Virus record (IMG/VR): IMGVR_UViG_2778261571_000001
Span: 1 to 6,584 of that record
Reading direction: 5' to 3' (one strand)
Origin: a virus
Taxonomy: Duplodnaviria; Heunggongvirae; Uroviricota; Caudoviricetes
DNA: 6,584 nucleotides
A program made the position numbers and the translations under genes. This document shows positions 1 through 6,584 of this stretch, one piece after another. Position 1 is the first letter of the stretch. Every line of letters begins with the position of its first letter. The notes under the pieces are model-generated. The model did not search any database and had not been told where the DNA came from. It worked only from the letters and a program-made list of their open reading frames with translations.

Positions 1-5
1 AGTTA

Positions 6-81
6 TGGTGCTGGTTAACGGACTTGAACCGCTACCCATTCGCTTACAAGGCGACTGCTCTACCATTGGAGCTAAACCAGC
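6..81 (-). tRNA. tRNA, anticodon UGU (Thr) by manual folding; 76 nt with encoded CCA
   Basis: Reverse complement of 6..81 folds as a cloverleaf: 7-bp perfect acceptor stem GCTGGTT/AACCAGC, D-stem GCTC/GAGC, anticodon stem GTCGC/GCGAA (one G:A mismatch at 27:43), loop CTTGTAA, T-stem AGCGG/CCGTT with loop TTCAAGT, discriminator A, CCA. Position 14 is C rather than the usual A. Folded by eye, not with tRNAscan. Confidence 0.6.
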
Positions 82-86
82 ATATT

Positions 87-161
87 TGGCGGGACAGCGT
101 GGACTCGAACCACGATAAGAAGGTTAACAGCCTTCCGTGATTACCTTTATACGACTGACCC
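87..161 (-). tRNA. tRNA-like element with Asn-type anticodon loop (GUU); degenerate D-arm, possible pseudo-tRNA
   Basis: Reverse complement shows a perfect T-arm CGTGG-TTCGAGT-CCACG, a perfect anticodon arm GAAGG-CTGTTAA-CCTTC and an encoded CCA, but the D-stem GTAT/TCAC has two mismatches and the acceptor stem GGGTCAG/CTGTCCC has a T:T mismatch at position 4:69. It starts immediately after the tR' U-tract and lies 5 nt upstream of the first tRNA. Confidence 0.4.
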
Positions 162-162
162 A

Positions 163-224
163 AATAAAAAATCCCGAAACCGTTGTGCAGGCTCTAACTA
201 TTACCTGCGAACTGTTTCGGGATT
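163..224 (-). terminator. Rho-independent terminator, lambda tR'-like (end of a 6S-like late leader RNA)
   Basis: On the minus strand a long imperfect hairpin AATCCCGAAAC...GGTTTCGGGATT (plus 171..224) is followed directly by TTTTTTAT. It closely matches my recollection of the lambda tR' sequence. Confidence 0.8.
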
Positions 225-354
225 GCATTTTGCAGACCTCTCAGCCTGCGATGGTTGGAGTTCCAGACGATACGTCGAAGTGACCAACTAGGCGGAATCG
301 GTAGTAAGCGCCGCCTCTTTTTATCTCACTACCACAACGAGCGAATTAACCCAT

Positions 355-395
355 CGTTGGGTCAAATTTACCCAACTTTATTCAAAAAGTCAATA
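355..395 (-). promoter_or_regulatory. Late promoter pR' with overlapping qut site (Q-utilisation)
   Basis: Minus strand has -35 TTGACT (plus 388..393), a 17-bp spacer and -10 TAAATT (plus 365..370). The predicted start near 358 lies about 194 nt upstream of the terminator U-tract, which matches the known length of lambda 6S RNA. Position is immediately downstream of Q. Confidence 0.7.
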
Positions 396-435
396 TCATG
401 CCGTTAATATGTTGCCATCCGTGGCAATCATGCTG

Positions 436-1059
436 CTAACGTGTGACCGCATTCAAAATGTTGTCTGCGATTGACTCTTCTTTGTGGCATTGCACCACCA
501 GAGCGTCATACAGCGGCTTAACAGTGCGTGACCAGGTGGGTTGGGTAAGGTTTGGGATTAGCATCGTCACAGCGCGATATGCTGCGCTTGCTGGCATCCT
601 TGAATAGCCGACGCCTTTGCATCTTCCGCACTCTTTCTCGACAACTCTCCCCCACTGCTCTGTTTTGGCTATATCAACCGCACGACCTGTACCGTGGCAA
701 TCTCTGCATCTTGCCCCCGGCGTCGCGGCACTACGGCAATAATCCGCATAAGCGAATGTTGCGAGAACTTGCAGTACCTTTGCCTTAGTATTTCCTTCAA
801 GCTTTGCCACACCACGGTATTTCCCCGATACCTTGTGTGCAAATTGCATCAGATAGTTGATAGCCTTTTGTTTGTCGTTCTGGCTGAGTTCATGCTTACC
901 GCAGAATGCAGCCATTCCGAATCCGGCTTGTGATTGCGCCATCCCCATAGCAGCCATCACATCAGTACCGGAAAGAGAGTCAGAAGCCGTAGCCCGTGGT
1001 GAGTCGCTCATCATCGGGCTTTTTGGCGAATGAAATTTAGCTACGCTTTCGAGTCTCAT
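436..1059 (-). CDS. Q: Late-gene antitermination protein Q (lambda-type)
   Basis: 207-aa ORF with ATG start. The translation matches lambda Q as I recall it throughout, including the zinc-binding region CRDCHGTGR...CGRCKGVGY. It is followed by a lambda-like pR'/qut/tR'. Confidence 0.9.
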   Translation of the reverse strand: MRLESVAKFHSPKSPMMSDSPRATASDSLSGTDVMAAMGMAQSQAGFGMAAFCGKHELSQNDKQKAINYLMQFAHKVSGKYRGVAKLEGNTKAKVLQVLATFAYADYCRSAATPGARCRDCHGTGRAVDIAKTEQWGRVVEKECGRCKGVGYSRMPASAAYRAVTMLIPNLTQPTWSRTVKPLYDALVVQCHKEESIADNILNAVTR

Positions 1060-1244
1060 GGCCTTCCCCTTTTGCCCTGTTTGACCATCAGGACGCCGTT
1101 AACTATTACGTGACGCTCGCCTTTGCTGTCTCGGTTGTACTTGAGCACTGTTCCTCTTGCGCAGGAAAGCATCCTCGCCACTTCGGTCTGATTGCCTCGT
1201 GTCTGGATAAGAAGCTCTGGTATCGTTTGAATTGTGGCGTTCAT
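1056..1244 (-). CDS. ninH: NinH-like small DNA-binding protein
   Basis: 62-aa ORF with ATG start. The motif TIPELL...GNQTEVARML.C.RGTV.KY resembles lambda NinH. Its stop overlaps the Q start (ATGA). Confidence 0.7.
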   Translation of the reverse strand: MNATIQTIPELLIQTRGNQTEVARMLSCARGTVLKYNRDSKGERHVIVNGVLMVKQGKRGRP

Positions 1245-1603
1245 GCGTTCTCCAGTTCGGTGATTTTTATTCCAAGCCTTCCGCCTGGTACTTTCACACC
1301 ACGAATTACGCGAATGTCATCGAATTGCTCGTCGTCTTCCGCAAATCCGGCGTGGATAAGTGAGTCGAGTAAACCTTTCAGGATGTTATCGAGGTCGCGG
1401 CGGCGGGAGTCTGGAACGTCTGCGATGACTTTGATGCGGAGTCGTGATTTGGTGAAAATGTCTAACTTGAGTTGGCGGATTATTTGCTGAACGTCTTTTC
1501 GGTATTTCTGGCCTTTATCGCTGATGTAGTATTGGCTTCCCCGTCTTCGCCAGTAGGTGTTCAGCGACGGTGGGTACGGAAGTGTGAATCTGTATTCTGC
1601 CAT
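1241..1603 (-). CDS. rusA: Holliday-junction resolvase RusA
   Basis: 120-aa ORF with ATG start and an upstream GGAGAGGA Shine-Dalgarno. It has the RusA hallmarks: N-terminal L/TLPxPPSxN, the catalytic acidic cluster RRRDLDN, and a C-terminal GGRL motif. Length matches E. coli RusA (120 aa). Confidence 0.85.
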   Translation of the reverse strand: MAEYRFTLPYPPSLNTYWRRRGSQYYISDKGQKYRKDVQQIIRQLKLDIFTKSRLRIKVIADVPDSRRRDLDNILKGLLDSLIHAGFAEDDEQFDDIRVIRGVKVPGGRLGIKITELENA

Positions 1604-2128
1604 TTATCCTCTCCCATGATTATGGTGATACCCCAATCGTGATTCCGCCAATTTTCTGGCATTAACGGCTAGAGATATGTCATCGTATAATCCAAGAAAT
1701 ATCTTTTTATTATCACTGTTTATATATGCGCCCCACTTTTTATTCTTCTTATAGTAGGCAACACCCATTACTCCAGAGCGATTATTAATAGGCTTTTTTC
1801 TGTTCCTTGAGTTCTGTTTATCATCTACAACGCGCAAATTGCATATTCTGTTATCGCTTTTAATTCCATTTATGTGGTCAATTTCCCCATCAGGTTCGCT
1901 TCCATAAAATGATATCCATGCGATTCTATGAGCTCGACAAACTTTTTTATTTACAGATATACGAACGTATCCTTTTTCATCTATAGAACCAGCAATCTTA
2001 CCGGCATATGTTGAATTCCAGCACTCTCTTACACTTTCTCTTCTTTTGTATATAAACAAACCTGTTTCGCTATTATATTCATACAATTCATTGATTTCTT
2101 TTTGTGTTGGATATCTTTTACCGTTCAT
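1604..2128 (-). CDS. HNH homing-type endonuclease with C-terminal AP2 DNA-binding domain
   Basis: 174-aa ORF with ATG start. HNH core EIDHINGIKSDNRICNLRVV and an AP2-like segment SGVMGVAYYKKNKKWGAYI. The gene is visibly more AT-rich than its neighbours. Its start overlaps the upstream stop (ATGA). Confidence 0.8.
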   Translation of the reverse strand: MNGKRYPTQKEINELYEYNSETGLFIYKRRESVRECWNSTYAGKIAGSIDEKGYVRISVNKKVCRAHRIAWISFYGSEPDGEIDHINGIKSDNRICNLRVVDDKQNSRNRKKPINNRSGVMGVAYYKKNKKWGAYINSDNKKIFLGLYDDISLAVNARKLAESRLGYHHNHGRG

Positions 2129-2415
2129 GACTTAATCTTCCCCTCCTTCAGCAGTATCGCCTGCGTCCTGATCACGCCTTCGAGGTGGTAAAGTCTGGCG
2201 TCTTTGTTGTCGAGATTATGGGTGCGTCGGTCGATCTCCGCGTGGCAGTCACTACAAGCCCATGCGCCGATCAGGTCGTCAGGCTTCATCCCCGTTCCAC
2301 AAATTCCAGCCATCCGGTAATGTGCCAGAACTGTAGTTTCAGGATTACCATTGCATACGCCGTAAATACGTACCTGGCATTCTCTGCCGCGTGCTTCTTT
2401 GCGTAGATTAGCCAT
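2125..2415 (-). CDS. ybcO: Cys-rich DUF1364/YbcO-family nin-region protein (putative nuclease)
   Basis: 96-aa ORF with ATG start and a GGGGAGG Shine-Dalgarno. The pattern RGRECQVRIxGVCNGNPETxVLAH...CGTG.KP.DL....ACS.CH.EIDRRTH resembles the DLP12 YbcO protein as I recall it. In DLP12, ybcO sits directly upstream of rusA. Confidence 0.6.
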   Translation of the reverse strand: MANLRKEARGRECQVRIYGVCNGNPETTVLAHYRMAGICGTGMKPDDLIGAWACSDCHAEIDRRTHNLDNKDARLYHLEGVIRTQAILLKEGKIKS

Positions 2416-3140
2416 TAAGCAGCCTCCCCTGTTACTTTCAGCATTCCGTTATCGAGCAGCTTTCTGGTCAGCCACTGTTGACCACGCCCGGTGATTTTTG
2501 TGGTGAACGATATCTGTATTCCGTGATTTGTGTTGACCGCTGTTTCTTTCACTGTGAAATAGCCGCGATCCATATATTCCTGCATTGGCACATTGCGCCG
2601 GGAACCTGAAGCAATAAGGATTTTGTGATCGCGCATCCACGCAAACAGTTTGTTTTGACCAATTCCAACAACCTTTGCAAAGTTTCCAATCAAAATTCCG
2701 CTGGCCTCGCCAACTCGATCGGCAAACTCAACTTTAGGTGCGGCAATTGCGAGCTGGTTTTCCAGTTGCATTTTCTGCTCAGCAAGATCAGCAGCAAGGC
2801 GCAACGCTTCCGGTAGCGTTTTGGGGATATTAACCGCAGCTTCTTCAAGCTCTCGCCAGCGGTCAACAAGGCGAGCGGTGAACTCTGGCGACAACTGGGC
2901 GACGACAATAATGCTGTCTCGCTTTCCTTGTTCGCCCTCGAAGACGTAGAAATCACGCTTCCCGGTAATAACACCTAAATCATTGATTATGTTAGTGTGC
3001 TGCAATGCAGGAGGCTTGATAACGCCACGTTTCACCAATCTATCTATGGATACTTTTACATTGCTATGGCGGCTTTCTACCAACTCAGCGATTTCAATGC
3101 TTGTCATTTTGATGGCATTGCCATTTATTAACTCATTCAT
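2415..3140 (-). CDS. Phage regulatory protein, Rha-like N-terminus with KilA-C (ANT) C-terminal domain; putative antirepressor
   Basis: 241-aa ORF with ATG start. The C-terminal segment NVPMQEYMDRGYF fits the KilA-C antirepressor domain signature. The N-terminus (MTSIEIAELV...HSNV...I..L) is Rha-like. Confidence 0.65.
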   Translation of the reverse strand: MNELINGNAIKMTSIEIAELVESRHSNVKVSIDRLVKRGVIKPPALQHTNIINDLGVITGKRDFYVFEGEQGKRDSIIVVAQLSPEFTARLVDRWRELEEAAVNIPKTLPEALRLAADLAEQKMQLENQLAIAAPKVEFADRVGEASGILIGNFAKVVGIGQNKLFAWMRDHKILIASGSRRNVPMQEYMDRGYFTVKETAVNTNHGIQISFTTKITGRGQQWLTRKLLDNGMLKVTGEAA

Positions 3141-3303
3141 CGTCTTCTTCCTCGTACATTGAGCTATTCGGATCGCTCATCAGCTCTGCGCAGCAATCGG
3201 AGCACACGTGAACTTCCAGAAAATGCAGCTTTTGACCGCAGTTAGCGCACGTTAAAGCCCGCTCGACGCTTTGTTGTTCGTAACTTCGATTTGGGTCAAT
3301 CAC
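3133..3303 (-). CDS. ninF: NinF-like small Cys-rich protein
   Basis: The core [41 protein letters not shown] matches lambda NinF as I recall it. The ORF track gives a 70-aa product starting at 3345, but a GTG at 3303..3301 overlaps the NinE stop (GTGA) and gives a lambda-sized ~56-aa product, so I prefer that start. Confidence 0.7.
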
Positions 3304-3482
3304 CTTGTTTTCCTCGCACGTTCTCTTAGCCACCGGATATCCCACAGGTGAGCCGTGTAGTTGAAGGTTTTTACGTCAGATTCTTTTGGGATTGGCTTGC
3401 GTTTATTTCTGGATCGTTTCGTTGGAAGGTATTTGCAGTTTTCGCAGATGATATCGATGAAACTTCGTCGCTGTCGTCTCAT
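3300..3482 (-). CDS. ninE: NinE
   Basis: 60-aa ORF with ATG start. [23 protein letters not shown]...[15 protein letters not shown] is near-identical to lambda NinE as I recall it. Its start overlaps the NinB stop (ATGA). Confidence 0.85.
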
Positions 3483-3889
3483 TCGTACCTCCTGTCGGTA
3501 AATCTGACACCCTGACCAATAGCCCAGGCTGTTGTGTACTCGATCAGACTTGCCATGCGCTTCACGCTCATCTGCGCGCTGCTTTCGCGAATGTTGACGT
3601 ATTCGCCTTCAAGGCCTGGCAAAACATCAGCTTCCTGCTTTGTTGCCACTGCATGACCGCTGATCAACAAAACCTTCCATTGTTCCGGTTTTAACCATTT
3701 GCCGCACCATTGAACCTGACGTGCGATATCCGCCAGCATCGCGTGAAATTTTGCGTTCTGGTCAAGGTTGCGCTTGTAGTCAGTAATGCGGATGGTGACT
3801 GGCTTGTCTTTATCGAGTGGTGTTGCGAGGATGGCATTTATTGCGGCTTGCTGTTGTTGCTTAGTTCGGAGGAAGATTGTTTGCTTCAC
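3479..3889 (-). CDS. ninB: NinB (Orf-family recombination mediator)
   Basis: 136-aa ORF with a GTG start preceded by AAGGAG. The motifs LDQN.K.......I..QV.W.G and Y...S.AQM resemble lambda NinB. It occupies the standard position at the head of the nin cluster. Confidence 0.8.
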
Positions 3890-3900
3890 TGAATACTCCT

Positions 3901-4086
3901 TTATTTTTTATGCCTGTAACCCCATTCTTCCAGCAACCTTGCGGCGTACCACCCAAGAAACAAAGGAAAGAACATTACAATGAGATATTCCCCGCCACGG
4001 TCAATGTTCGAAATTGACCAGATTACGATGTAACCAGTGCAGAACAGGAATATTACAAACCCCAAAAAGCTACTTCGTCGACTCAT
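3901..4086 (-). CDS. Hypothetical small membrane protein (2 predicted TM helices)
   Basis: ORF of ~61 aa from ATG at 4086 (the track's 63-aa version starts at a GTG at 4092). AAGGAG lies 5 nt upstream of the ATG. Two hydrophobic stretches (FLGFVIFLFCTGYIVIWSI and YLIVMFFPLFLGWYAARLL) and a basic C-terminal tail. No family recognised. Confidence 0.45.
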   Translation of the reverse strand: MSRRSSFLGFVIFLFCTGYIVIWSISNIDRGGEYLIVMFFPLFLGWYAARLLEEWGYRHKK

Positions 4087-4088
4087 GC

Positions 4089-4409
4089 TCACTCCTTCAC
4101 TTTGATTCCAGCAGCGCGGATGTTTTCCTCATAAGCATCCATTGCATCACCGAAGCCATTGGAATAATCAACAGTAAACCCTTTGGCTAATGCTTCTCTG
4201 CTGTCGATAAACTTTGGCGCGGTTATTTCAATAGCTGATCGCGATGCCTGCCACGTTTGCCAGTGGCCTTGAACATCGTCCATCACGTATTGACCACCAA
4301 TATTACCACTGCCAATTTCATGGTGATTTTCAGGGTAACGGATAAGGTCTGAGGATTCGCCTCCACGTCGCAACCAACTTTCTTCAAACTGCTTTCTTGA
4401 TTCGTCCAT
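4089..4409 (-). CDS. Hypothetical acidic soluble protein, ~106 aa
   Basis: ATG start with a GAGGGT Shine-Dalgarno. No recognisable catalytic motif. Tightly packed between two small 2-TM ORFs. Confidence 0.55.
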   Translation of the reverse strand: MDESRKQFEESWLRRGGESSDLIRYPENHHEIGSGNIGGQYVMDDVQGHWQTWQASRSAIEITAPKFIDSREALAKGFTVDYSNGFGDAMDAYEENIRAAGIKVKE

Positions 4410-4426
4410 CGATACTTACCCTCAGT

Positions 4427-4633
4427 TCAACTCACAAAACGCCACGCCATTTTTGCTACAGCGACAGGCATAACACCGATAATCACCCAGACAAATGCAG
4501 CGCCAAACAACGTATACCATGGGTCTTTACCGTCATTCACAAGACGAATGTAGCTATGCAGAACAATAAATAACGTCAGAAGAATCCATCCAACGCCAAC
4601 GCATTTGAATGCGACGAGCATAAACTCAGCCAC
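4427..4633 (-). CDS. Hypothetical small membrane protein (2 predicted TM helices)
   Basis: 68-aa ORF from GTG at 4633 (GGGGGAGAG upstream); an alternative ATG at 4621 would give 64 aa. Two hydrophobic helices (LVAFKCVGVGWILLTLFIVL and LFGAAFVWVIIGVMPVAVA). The start is uncertain. Confidence 0.4.
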   Translation of the reverse strand: MAEFMLVAFKCVGVGWILLTLFIVLHSYIRLVNDGKDPWYTLFGAAFVWVIIGVMPVAVAKMAWRFVS

Positions 4634-4649
4634 GATTTACTCTCCCCCA

Positions 4650-4680
4650 AATAAAAAGGCCTGCGATTACCAGCAGGCCT
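4650..4680 (-). terminator. Intrinsic terminator downstream of the helicase gene (tR2-like position)
   Basis: 8-bp perfect GC-rich stem AGGCCTGC/GCAGGCCT (plus 4657..4664 and 4673..4680) with an 8-nt loop. On the minus strand it is followed by TTTTTATTT. Confidence 0.55.
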
Positions 4681-4708
4681 GTTATTAGCTCAGTGATGTA
4701 GATGGTCA

Positions 4709-6145
4709 TCAGAATCCTCCTTTCTTCTTGGACTGCGGTTCCTCGCGTTCACGGCGGCGCATTTCAGCAGACTGTTGGTCTGTGTCATAAATAGCGCCAT
4801 TTGCCTGAATGCAATACACCGTGCCGGTATTGCCATGACGATTGAGACGAAGGATTAGTTCGGTTTCACCAGGTGGAACACTGTCATCAAAAGCACCTTC
4901 ACGATGGATCCCCACCCAATAATCGCAATCCTGTTCAATCTGCCCTGTATCTCTGGAGTCACTTGGTAATGGGCGTTTATTGGTTCGGCTTTCCAGTGCG
5001 CGGTTAAGCTGTGTCAGAAGCACAACAACGCAATCAAGCTCTTTGGCAAGGTTCTTCAGTCCTTTGGTGATCATGCCGTAAGCAAGGTCGTTGCGATCGG
5101 CCTTTTCAGCGGTCATTAGTGTCAGGTAATCGACCAGAATCATGCCAACACATCCTTTTTCTCGCTTGATTCGACGGCTTTCGCTGACGATTTGAGCCAG
5201 AGATAATCCCGGCGTGTCGTCGATGTAAAGCAGGTCGATTTCACTTAAGCGATTGGCTGTTTCGATCGCCCTGTTGAAGTCACCATCGTAATCACCCTGA
5301 TAGCCGTCATCAGCGTCATTTGTCGCCGGAAGGTAAAAAATATTCGGGTTAACACCTGACTTCTGTCCCACCAGTTTTTCCAGTATCTGGTCACCAGGCA
5401 TTTCAAGGCTGAACATCAGAGCGGGCTTTTTCTCATGCACTGCGCAGTTGATTGCCATCTGGCTGTATAGCGTCGTTTTCCCCATCTTAGGGCGGGCGCC
5501 AATGACAAACAGAGAGCCTTTCACCAGACCTTTCGGTGACAGCATCCTGTCCAGCGATGGGATCCCTGTGCTCATTCCTCGTTGCTCGCCTGACGGGTCA
5601 AATCGCTTCTCAAGGTCGCTAACCCAGTCTTCCATGACCTCACCAAATGAGCGAAGGCCGCGACGCGATCCGGTTTTTGCATGGTCTGTCAGTTGCGTGA
5701 AAATCGCCTGAATAGCTTCGTACTTCTGCGTTGCAGTCATTCCGTTGCGGGAATATAGCAATTCCGTCGCTTCAGTCATGCGGTTGATGGCGTAGCGTTC
5801 CATTGCGGTTTCGCGAACCTGCATTGCATAGGCAACGATGTTTGCGGAGCTTGGCGTGTTCTTTGCGATCTCAGCGATATAAGCAAAACCGCCAACAGAC
5901 GCCGTTAACGATTTACGCTCCAGTTCATCGAAAAGCGTCAGGCCATCTACTGGCTTTTGCTCCCGGTGCATTCTGGTTATTTCTTCGAAAAGGATTTTGT
6001 GTGGTCGGCTGTAAAATGAATCAGGCTTCAGCATCGCCAGAACTTTCTGGACGCGCTCACTGCTGTCATCATCCAGAAGCAATCCACCAATCACCGCCTG
6101 CTCTGCCTCGATGCTATTTGGCGGCGAATAAAAATTATCGGTCAT
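4709..6145 (-). CDS. Replicative DNA helicase, DnaB family (phage P22 gene 12-type)
   Basis: Walker A GARPKMGKT, DnaB N-terminal motif SIEAEQAVIGGLL, and a DnaB-like H2 region GMILVDYLTLM. I place the start at the ATG at 6145..6143 (GAGG Shine-Dalgarno ~9 nt upstream) rather than the GTG at 6160 used by the ORF track. Confidence 0.9.
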   Translation of the reverse strand: MTDNFYSPPNSIEAEQAVIGGLLLDDDSSERVQKVLAMLKPDSFYSRPHKILFEEITRMHREQKPVDGLTLFDELERKSLTASVGGFAYIAEIAKNTPSSANIVAYAMQVRETAMERYAINRMTEATELLYSRNGMTATQKYEAIQAIFTQLTDHAKTGSRRGLRSFGEVMEDWVSDLEKRFDPSGEQRGMSTGIPSLDRMLSPKGLVKGSLFVIGARPKMGKTTLYSQMAINCAVHEKKPALMFSLEMPGDQILEKLVGQKSGVNPNIFYLPATNDADDGYQGDYDGDFNRAIETANRLSEIDLLYIDDTPGLSLAQIVSESRRIKREKGCVGMILVDYLTLMTAEKADRNDLAYGMITKGLKNLAKELDCVVVLLTQLNRALESRTNKRPLPSDSRDTGQIEQDCDYWVGIHREGAFDDSVPPGETELILRLNRHGNTGTVYCIQANGAIYDTDQQSAEMRRREREEPQSKKKGGF

Positions 6146-6584
6146 CGTGTTCACCCTCACGAACTTTCAGGTAGGTATTATCGTTAAGCAGGAAATCAAA
6201 TCCCTTTTTGTGCCAGACGGTTCCGCGCTGATGGTTTGGGCGCTCTTCGAACATCCATCGGCAATTTTCGCCTACGTAGTTCAAATAATTTCTCCAGTCC
6301 TGCATCGTGAACCCATGCCCGTCAAGCTGGCGGGTTATCACTCCGGCTTTGCGCCAGAACGTTCGGATCTGGTTTTTACGCTTGTCATTCAGTGCGCGGA
6401 TTTTTGGCGCTTCAGGAAGGATTTCGTGGTAAGCATCGACAACATCCTGACAGCTGACGGAAGGTTTTTTCTTGTCAGACTTTTTGTCTGCTGTGGCACT
6501 CTCTAATACGTCAGTATTAGAGATATTATTTATATTATTGTTTATGGACAACCGTTGGACAACCGTTGGACAATCTCCGCTGAG
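6135..6584 (-). CDS. O-like replication initiator, C-terminal portion (5'-truncated by the window edge)
   Basis: The reading frame stays open on the minus strand to position 6584, so the TTG 'start' at 6551 in the ORF track is an artefact. The ORF contains iterons, an AT-rich tract and a palindrome, as the lambda O gene does. The stop lies 5 nt upstream of the helicase start. Confidence 0.65.
   Translation of the reverse strand, partial: LSGDCPTVVQRLSINNNINNISNTDVLESATADKKSDKKKPSVSCQDVVDAYHEILPEAPKIRALNDKRKNQIRTFWRKAGVITRQLDGHGFTMQDWRNYLNYVGENCRWMFEERPNHQRGTVWHKKGFDFLLNDNTYLKVREGEHDDR
6501..6546. other. Origin AT-rich unwinding tract (6523..6546) plus 9-bp inverted repeat CTCTAATAC/GTATTAGAG (6501..6522)
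   Basis: A strongly AT-rich stretch, with a perfect 9-bp inverted repeat and 4-bp spacer next to it. The order iterons, AT-rich, palindrome on the coding strand mirrors lambda ori. Confidence 0.55.
6547..6574. repeat. Origin iterons: tandem 11-bp direct repeats GGACAACCGTT (2 full copies plus a partial third; array may continue off-window)
   Basis: Exact tandem copies at 6547..6557 and 6558..6568, then GGACAA at 6569..6574. The ~one-helical-turn period and position next to an AT-rich tract inside the initiator gene fit iterons. Confidence 0.6.

Follow-up and report, generated by a model that had tools for sequence, protein, structure and literature searches.

Gene identity and operon context

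The window analysed here, 6,584 nucleotides (nt) of a Caudoviricetes virus (IMG/VR record IMGVR_UViG_2778261571_000001, positions 1 to 6,584), covers a lambdoid nin region in minus-strand orientation. The gene under study, an open reading frame (ORF) of 241 codons found at 2415-3140 in the ORF listing of the window, is roi, the HK022-type Roi gene of lambdoid phages, which is already known and very common. Its nt identity was 98.1% to HK022 roi and 97.9% to HK97 roi by megablast, and 240 of 241 residues were the same in the Roi proteins of the window and HK022; the sole difference was Q162 in the window and P162 in HK022. The HK022 and HK97 records label the gene "roi / DNA binding protein" and place it between homologues of ninF and ybcO. 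Megablast matched roi in 219 of 50,697 phage records, the gene was present in 986 of 5,426 complete Escherichia coli genomes, and Roi homologues number in the thousands.

The gene order was O (6135-6551), the DnaB-like P (4709-6160), three small ORFs, ninB, ninE, ninF, roi, ybcO, an HNH gene, rusA, ninH and Q (436-1059), followed by two tRNAs. The roi gene lies in the interval between P and Q, flanked by ninF and ybcO, as in HK022 and HK97. A first-pass annotation, made from the sequence alone, had described an ORF that overlapped the ninF stop by 8 nt and also overlapped the start of ybcO. Both overlaps were confirmed, on the minus strand, which had not been stated: the roi ATG (3140-3138) falls within the final codons of ninF (stop codon, 3135-3133), and the roi TAA (2417-2415) meets the ybcO ATG (2415-2413). 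The translational coupling proposed on this basis held insofar as the overlaps are real. However, overlaps of 1-8 nt between stop and start were present at nearly every junction from ninB to Q, indicating that coupling characterises the nin operon in general and does not single out roi.

Six promoter-like sites were found across the window, where 9.0 were expected, and the interval between ninF and roi had none. No LexA box was detected upstream of roi, and the only match with one mismatch in the window fell in gene P, compared with 2.1 expected. The earlier view that roi has no promoter of its own and is read within the nin operon was thus borne out. An upstream operator or LexA box had also been proposed as worth seeking; the LexA box was absent there, and a candidate operator was found instead inside the roi coding sequence, as described below. 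A terminator-like hairpin of 8 bp with six G-C pairs, followed by a T run, was present at 4657-4680 on the minus strand directly after the P stop. This is the position of the tR2/L2 terminator in lambda and P22, the source of the name of the nin region, and expression of roi is therefore probably dependent on antitermination. The coordinates of roi, its elements and its immediate neighbours are collected in Table 1.

Domain organization of Roi

The C-terminus had been described as KilA-C-type, and the domain search agreed: the ANT/KilAC family PF03374 matched at E 3.4e-33 and 114.7 bits (cut-off 25.3) over profile positions 1-106 of 108, and NVPMQEYMDRGYF, residues 183-195 of Roi, fell within the match. 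Most E. coli roi alleles shared at least 98% identity in this domain, including those that differed in the N-terminal domain (N-domain). The Rha assignment stood in part. The N-terminal half is Rha-like, with residues 12-100 aligned across all 91 of the 91 profile positions of PF09669 (Phage_pRha), but the score of 25.2 bits was under the cut-off of 29.9; close Roi homologues do have a precomputed PF09669 match. Roi also matched PHROG 63, "anti-repressor Ant", at E 4e-94, and no match was obtained in NCBIfam. An AlphaFold model built on an alignment of 70 sequences (mean confidence, pLDDT, 77 overall and approximately 85 in the N-domain) showed a helix at residues 14-21, a turn, a second helix at 25-38 and a beta-hairpin at 45-68. 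In this model, residues 27, 30, 31 and 34 are predicted to lie on one face of the recognition helix (25-38) of a winged helix-turn-helix.

The first-pass annotation had further suggested an antirepressor acting on the repressors of resident prophages. If Roi were a true antirepressor, its KilAC domain would inactivate CI-type repressors by binding them, whether the repressor of its own phage or those of other prophages in the cell, in the way that P1 Ant1/Ant2 counter C1, and expression by read-through from pR would reinforce or cross-induce lytic growth. The strong ANT/KilAC match, the PHROG 63 match and the naming of the domain after P1 Ant and KilA agree with such a role. By contrast, the activity reported for Roi is DNA binding, and no repressor binding by Roi was reported in the literature that could be retrieved. 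The control of roi is also unlike that of known antirepressors: it has no LexA box, private promoter or immI-like control, and the immunity or SOS-circuit control typical of P1 Ant, P22 Ant and the Gifsy/N15-type proteins was not found. Further, as a delayed-early gene, roi would be expressed only once repression had already been lifted, and other KilAC domains act in other ways, by SOS inhibition, probably via RecA, or by division arrest or toxicity. We consider an antirepressor function quite unlikely; the label was inherited from P1 Ant via the C-terminal domain alone.

A palindrome within the roi coding sequence

A candidate Roi operator was found in codons 44-48, just after the predicted recognition helix, when roi alleles were compared. 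The first allele set comprised 80 related viral loci and was enlarged to 239 loci, with homologues down to approximately 25% identity. In a scan of allele classes, 2999-3011 was the only position in roi that was both variable and still palindromic. A perfect 13-bp palindrome was present at the codon-aligned position in 64 of 126 distinct alleles, and 36 more had five of the six arm pairs. The palindrome sequences were diverse among alleles, examples being CCTCAAATTGAGG, CCACCAATGGTGG, CCGCCATTGGCGG, CCCCCAATGGGGG and CCTGCGGCGCAGG. When gene nt 100-190 were searched without regard to position, 94 of 180 alleles had a perfect palindrome, compared with 3 of 357 control windows.

The dyad reached 21 bp in many alleles. 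Among 84 distinct 21-mers, 82.1% of cells were paired, compared with 62.9% after shuffling; the covariation score was 0.466 and that of shuffled sequences 0.148, with none of 500 shuffles as high, and registers slid along the sequence scored 0.04-0.12. All four Watson-Crick types were observed at pair 7-15 of the 21-mer (42, 14, 11 and 9 counts). The synonymous third base of the Pro44 codon covaried with the second base of codon 47. Selection at the protein level cannot make this pattern, indicating that the palindrome sets which residue (E, V, A, G or Q) codon 47 encodes.

The HK022 genome contained one exact copy of the cognate site, and no second copy of the cognate operator was found within 1.5-2.5 kb of the gene. 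Apparent second copies nearby, at 0.375 per locus compared with 0.17 in controls, were rejected, because the excess came from one conserved stretch of KilAC codons common to all classes.

Other near-matches and palindromes were recorded. Six sites in HK022 matched the operator with at most one mismatch, compared with 1.57 expected, a number reached in only 1 of 100 shuffles. In the window, the one-mismatch copies CTGCGTTGCAG and CTGCATTGCAT were located in the DnaB-like P gene at 5726-5736 and 5819-5829, 93 bp apart, and both were kept in HK022, at 31327 and 31234. They may be secondary Roi sites or chance matches, a suggestive but weak observation. Two more perfect 13-bp palindromes were present in roi on the minus strand: ATGGCAATGCCAT at 3112-3124 (gene nt 17-29, between Met1 and Met12) and TTTCACAGTGAAA at 2547-2559 (gene nt 582-594, in the KilAC part). 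Both were invariant among close alleles and hence uninformative on covariation, and chance alone would give approximately 0.35 such palindromes in each gene.

An IHF consensus next to the palindrome

The only consensus for integration host factor (IHF) within roi was located 10 nt downstream of the palindrome, at 2976-2988. It was intact in 63 of 63 distinct roi sequences despite its position in the most variable stretch of the gene. In the wider family, the isoleucine of the I-N-x-L codons of the motif was encoded by ATC in 27 of 27 cases and the leucine by TTA in 26 of 27; in the same genes, the background frequencies were 37% ATC among isoleucine codons and 14% TTA among leucine codons. The fixation of ATC and TTA against this background indicates that the constraint on the IHF motif acts at the DNA level.

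Coupling of the recognition helix to the palindrome

Mutual information between columns of the N-domain and the three variable core bases was high only at residues 23, 27, 30, 31 and 34 (0.55-0.85 of column entropy) and, trivially, at residues 45-47, whose codons form the palindrome. Columns nearer the palindrome (36-43 and 48-64) had values of only 0.08-0.2. A code linking residues to bases, with the bases numbered in the 13-mer, was derived from 102 non-redundant alleles. Base 3 varied with residue 27, with Asn paired to T (58/58), Ser to A (17/17), Asp to G (10/10), Lys to C (13/13) and His to C (4/4). Base 4 varied with residue 30, Arg being paired to C in 70 of 73 alleles, Gln to C in 13 of 13 and Val, Ile or Thr to G in 16 of 16. 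Base 5 followed residue 34, as C with Arg (66/66) and as A with Thr, Ser or Lys (32/32). The Roi protein of the window has S23, N27, V30, S31 and R34, and its half-site, CCTGCA, was as the code predicts.

The code was then fixed and applied to 80 independent loci from bacterial genomes, including Vibrio, Pseudomonas, Burkholderiales, sphingomonads and Acinetobacter. The bases were predicted correctly at 43 of 44, 43 of 44 and 42 of 42 positions (128 of 130 in total). Several apparent misses of the palindrome in this set were palindromes displaced by two bases, which still followed the code. On a single strand, these pairings become Asn-A, Lys/His-G, Asp-C and Arg-G, which would, we infer, correspond to standard preferences between side chains and bases and run collinear with the helix.

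Allele mosaicism

The E. coli roi gene was mosaic. Residues 1-20 and 66-241 were nearly identical among alleles, and residues 22-65 occurred in at least four versions (loci L026 to L082 compared with 2945-3077 of the window). The four natural E. coli allele classes were designated TGC, CCC, TCA and TGC-extended. The C-terminal two-thirds were at least 98% identical in nearly all of the 80 viral loci, and the allele classes of residues 22-65 shared only 72-79% identity over residues 1-105. A variable segment holding the helix, operator, IHF site and wing between constant flanks indicates repeated exchange of a cassette within roi. When alleles were placed on a tree of the rest of the domain, parsimony gave approximately 10 switches in which helix and site moved jointly, a count that is a rough indication only, having come from a merged alignment that lost many sites and retained 63 alleles. 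In 31 alleles the module of N-domain and operator was fused to C-terminal domains other than KilAC, which supports a portable specificity cassette. Embedding in an operon was typical of relatives, the upstream ORF ending within 10 nt in 111 of 175. Helix, operator and IHF site would form a swappable cassette giving promoter-independent autoregulation wherever in an operon the gene lands.

Covariation like that of the palindrome arms is the classic signature of a hairpin, and the palindrome could instead be a nucleic-acid structure, either a hairpin in mRNA or single-stranded DNA or a recombination hotspot, kept for mRNA stability, ribosome pausing or cassette exchange, with the helix correlation arising by linkage. 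The extended dyads of many relatives, the exchange of residues 22-65 as a block between otherwise near-identical genes and the joint switches of helix and site would all fit. However, the RNA hairpin of the window allele was negligible (-2.9 kcal/mol, z 0.10), mismatches on the sense strand were not enriched for G-U (19 GT/TG compared with 46 AC/CA), and no RNA family was found at the site in Rfam. Simple block linkage also does not predict that the columns between helix and palindrome carry so little information on the core, nor that the residue-base pairs are chemically sensible and collinear. A role as nucleic-acid structure was therefore judged unlikely.

Proposed mechanism

The overall best explanation, to which we assign a probability of roughly 0.7, is that Roi restricts its own production by binding, through its winged helix and in concert with IHF, to the intragenic operator. 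Comparison of alleles revealed the palindrome and the IHF consensus as well as the way both are coupled to the recognition helix, and the reading built on them is as follows. The roi gene has no promoter of its own; it precedes Q, the activator of the late genes, and is transcribed with the delayed-early nin operon. A Roi dimer would bind the palindrome at codons 44-48 (2999-3011) through its N-domain, and IHF would bind and bend the DNA 10 bp downstream (2976-2988), stabilising the Roi complex. The Roi-IHF complex would then impede transcription through roi, capping the amount of full-length, dose-sensitive Roi, and possibly slow expression of Q and of the nin genes that follow roi. In hosts lacking IHF the control would fail, and Roi would block lytic growth, which fits the phenotype published for HK022. 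The lack of an own promoter, the single cognate site and the location of the site early in the gene point to promoter-independent negative feedback. By analogy with AriS, KilA or CreP, the KilAC domain most likely acts on the host in a dose-sensitive manner.

Early work on HK022 is consistent with this outline. In the work of Clerget and Boccard, lytic growth of HK022 reportedly needs IHF because of roi. Roi is said there to have a helix-turn-helix and to bind within its own gene near an IHF site, with IHF stabilising the binding. Mutants growing on IHF-deficient hosts were reportedly single Roi substitutions that altered binding, and the C-terminal half of Roi is said to resemble P1 Ant1 and KilA. 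Two later papers, which cite Clerget & Boccard 1996 (J Bacteriol 178:4077), describe Roi as a DNA-binding protein implicated in lytic growth. A gene with an IHF site and a linked Roi site is represented in the window by the IHF consensus and the palindrome, the latter taken here to be the Roi site.

Several observations weigh against the proposed binding and autoregulation. The dyad of the window allele was the weakest and shortest of the family, with an 11-bp perfect core and five of six pairs over 13 bp but without the 21-bp extension. The half-site centres in the 13-bp core were approximately 7 bp apart, which is unusual for a helix-turn-helix dimer; the 21-bp form found in relatives is more typical. 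Searches of the N-domain by fold gave only weak matches to winged helix-turn-helix proteins. Only eight distinct core classes were present, and permutation over them gave p 0.0036 for residue 27 and 0.018 for residue 34, values that are significant but far less striking than the allele counts. Only 30-60 nt separate the helix codons from the palindrome, and the two are exchanged as one cassette: in all 120 allele pairs that were at least 80% identical elsewhere but had different cores, the helix signature differed as well. Linkage could therefore in part account for the association of helix and palindrome. No palindrome with arms of at least 5 bp was found in P22 rha, nor was one found in the P0142-like Rha clade, indicating that the palindrome is a trait of the Roi-type subfamily, which shares the motif VAQLSPEFTARLVDRW. 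Finally, the palindrome is only presumed to be the Roi site reported for HK022, and the transcriptional roadblock that would lead to autoregulation is a step that we infer.

The intragenic site might also be a cis-acting anchor or origin-like element on which Roi loads, as lambda O does at ori, so that Roi binds the DNA that encodes it and recruits or blocks a host factor via KilAC, control of the Roi level then not being the purpose of the site. DNA-binding initiators of the lambda O and P22 gp18 type have their cognate sites inside their own genes, a likeness to the arrangement proposed for roi. However, these proteins bind several iterons that form an origin, whereas roi has a single palindrome with an IHF site and neither iterons nor an A/T-rich unwinding region. 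Related rha genes of P22 and phi80 are in the late operon, and no connection between Roi and replication was found in the retrievable literature. We regard this alternative as highly improbable.

Binding of Roi to the palindrome in its own gene would extend beyond the window. Roi-type regulators, of which there are hundreds of alleles in phages and prophages of the Proteobacteria, would carry their operator in the codons after the recognition helix, with a code of three residues and three bases; we rate the chance that this generalization is both right and novel as somewhat better than even. No description of the operator code across the family was found in the searchable literature, although the site in HK022 itself may have been mapped in the 1996 study of that one protein.

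Comparison with known systems

The roi genes of HK022 and HK97 are effectively the same gene as that of the window, in the same slot between ninF and ybcO and with the same start and stop overlaps. The phage of the window differs in carrying an HNH endonuclease gene and, relative to HK022, in residue 162 as given above.

The rha genes of P22 (orf201) and phi80 inhibit phage growth in IHF-deficient hosts, the same class of phenotype as that of roi. The N-terminal family of the Rha proteins, Phage_pRha, is related to the N-domain of Roi. The two differ in that rha is in the late operon and roi in the nin region, P22 Rha has no KilAC domain, and the Roi protein of the window scored under the Pfam cut-off for Phage_pRha. 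P22 rha (phage P22 39575-40180) has the IHF consensus AATCAATAACTTA at gene nt 261-273, in codons for K-I-N-N-L-G, the same as in many roi alleles. This ties the IHF phenotype shared by Rha and Roi to a shared sequence element, and the consensus in P22 rha may be the sequence basis of the common IHF-dependent phenotype. Rha of P22 and phi80 was reportedly the subject of work by Mozola and Friedman in 1985 and by Henthorn and Friedman in 1995.

P1 Ant1/Ant2 and KilA are the founding members of PF03374 and have a C-terminal domain homologous to that of Roi. P1 Ant counteracts the C1 repressor and is under immunity control, and KilA kills the host; Roi differs from both in its N-domain and its regulation. 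In a Listeria phage, the KilAC domain of AriS down-regulates the SOS response, probably through RecA, and regulation of phage genes is the task of the AriS N-domain (Azulay et al. 2022, PMC9043618). The same authors considered the exact function of KilAC unclear and noted that it is joined to interchangeable N-domains, including pRha (PMC9043618). AriS differs from Roi in that it is a protein of a Gram-positive phage with an AntA/AntB N-domain, and no intragenic operator has been described for it. Acinetobacter CreP is a stand-alone KilAC domain that arrests division.

In roughly one in five complete E. coli genomes, roi is present under the label "antirepressor", a function never shown for Roi, and the comparative result provides a testable answer to the question of what Roi/Rha-like proteins bind. 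If correct, the code would predict the binding site of any member of the Roi-type family from three residues, and the system would be a natural case of a re-programmable winged-helix recognition code combined with autoregulation via an operator hidden in coding sequence. In Shiga toxin (Stx) phages, roi is upstream of Q and the toxin genes, and a roadblock in roi would be relevant to when the toxin is expressed.

Table 1. Positions in the window of roi, its candidate regulatory elements and adjoining genes
Feature	Position	Strand	Basis
roi coding sequence, 241 aa	2415-3140	minus	ORF and identity to HK022/HK97 roi
GAGGA Shine-Dalgarno, 8 nt before roi ATG, within last ninF codons	3149-3153	minus	Direct sequence reading
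ATGAATGA, 8-nt overlap of roi start and ninF stop	3133-3140	minus	Sequence; same annotated in HK022 and HK97
TAATG, 1-base overlap of roi stop and ybcO start	2413-2417	minus	Sequence; same overlap in the HK022 and HK97 records
N-terminal Rha-like domain, predicted winged helix-turn-helix, aa 12-102	2835-3107	minus	
Predicted recognition helix, aa 25-38, with N27, V30, S31 and R34	3027-3068	minus	AlphaFold model
Palindrome CCTGCATTGCAGC, codons 44-48, gene nt 130-142, perfect 11-bp core 3000-3010; proposed Roi operator	2999-3011	minus	Covariation across relatives
IHF consensus AATCAATGATTTA, codons 51-55, gene nt 153-165 (wing tip, I-N-x-L-G)	2976-2988	minus	Exact WATCARNNNNTTR match
C-terminal ANT/KilAC domain, aa 127-229	2454-2762	minus	PF03374
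ninF, 56 aa, GTG start overlapping ninE stop; upstream neighbour	3133-3303	minus	PF05810; length as annotated in HK022 and HK97
ybcO/DUF1364; downstream neighbour	2125-2415	minus	PF07102, E 1.4e-43

Other features of the window

The three small ORFs between P and ninB were located on the minus strand at 3901-4092 (63 residues), 4089-4409 (106 residues) and 4427-4633 (68 residues). Two of them were membrane-protein-like and none had an NCBIfam match; this stretch was unlike HK022.

The HNH_3 endonuclease gene (174 residues, 1604-2128, minus strand; PF13392, E 1e-16) was located between ybcO and rusA, two genes downstream of roi, in a slot that is empty in HK022 and HK97. It had no megablast match in the 50,697 phage records, and the arrangement ninF-roi-ybcO-HNH-rusA was present in only 20 of the 5,426 complete E. 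coli genomes. It probably encodes a homing-type endonuclease of the free-standing kind whose gene has inserted into the nin operon.

Downstream of Q, tRNA-Thr (tgt) and tRNA-Asn (gtt) were found on the minus strand at 6-81 and 87-161, respectively. Stx phages and their lambdoid relatives have tRNAs in this same slot, before the late or lysis region.

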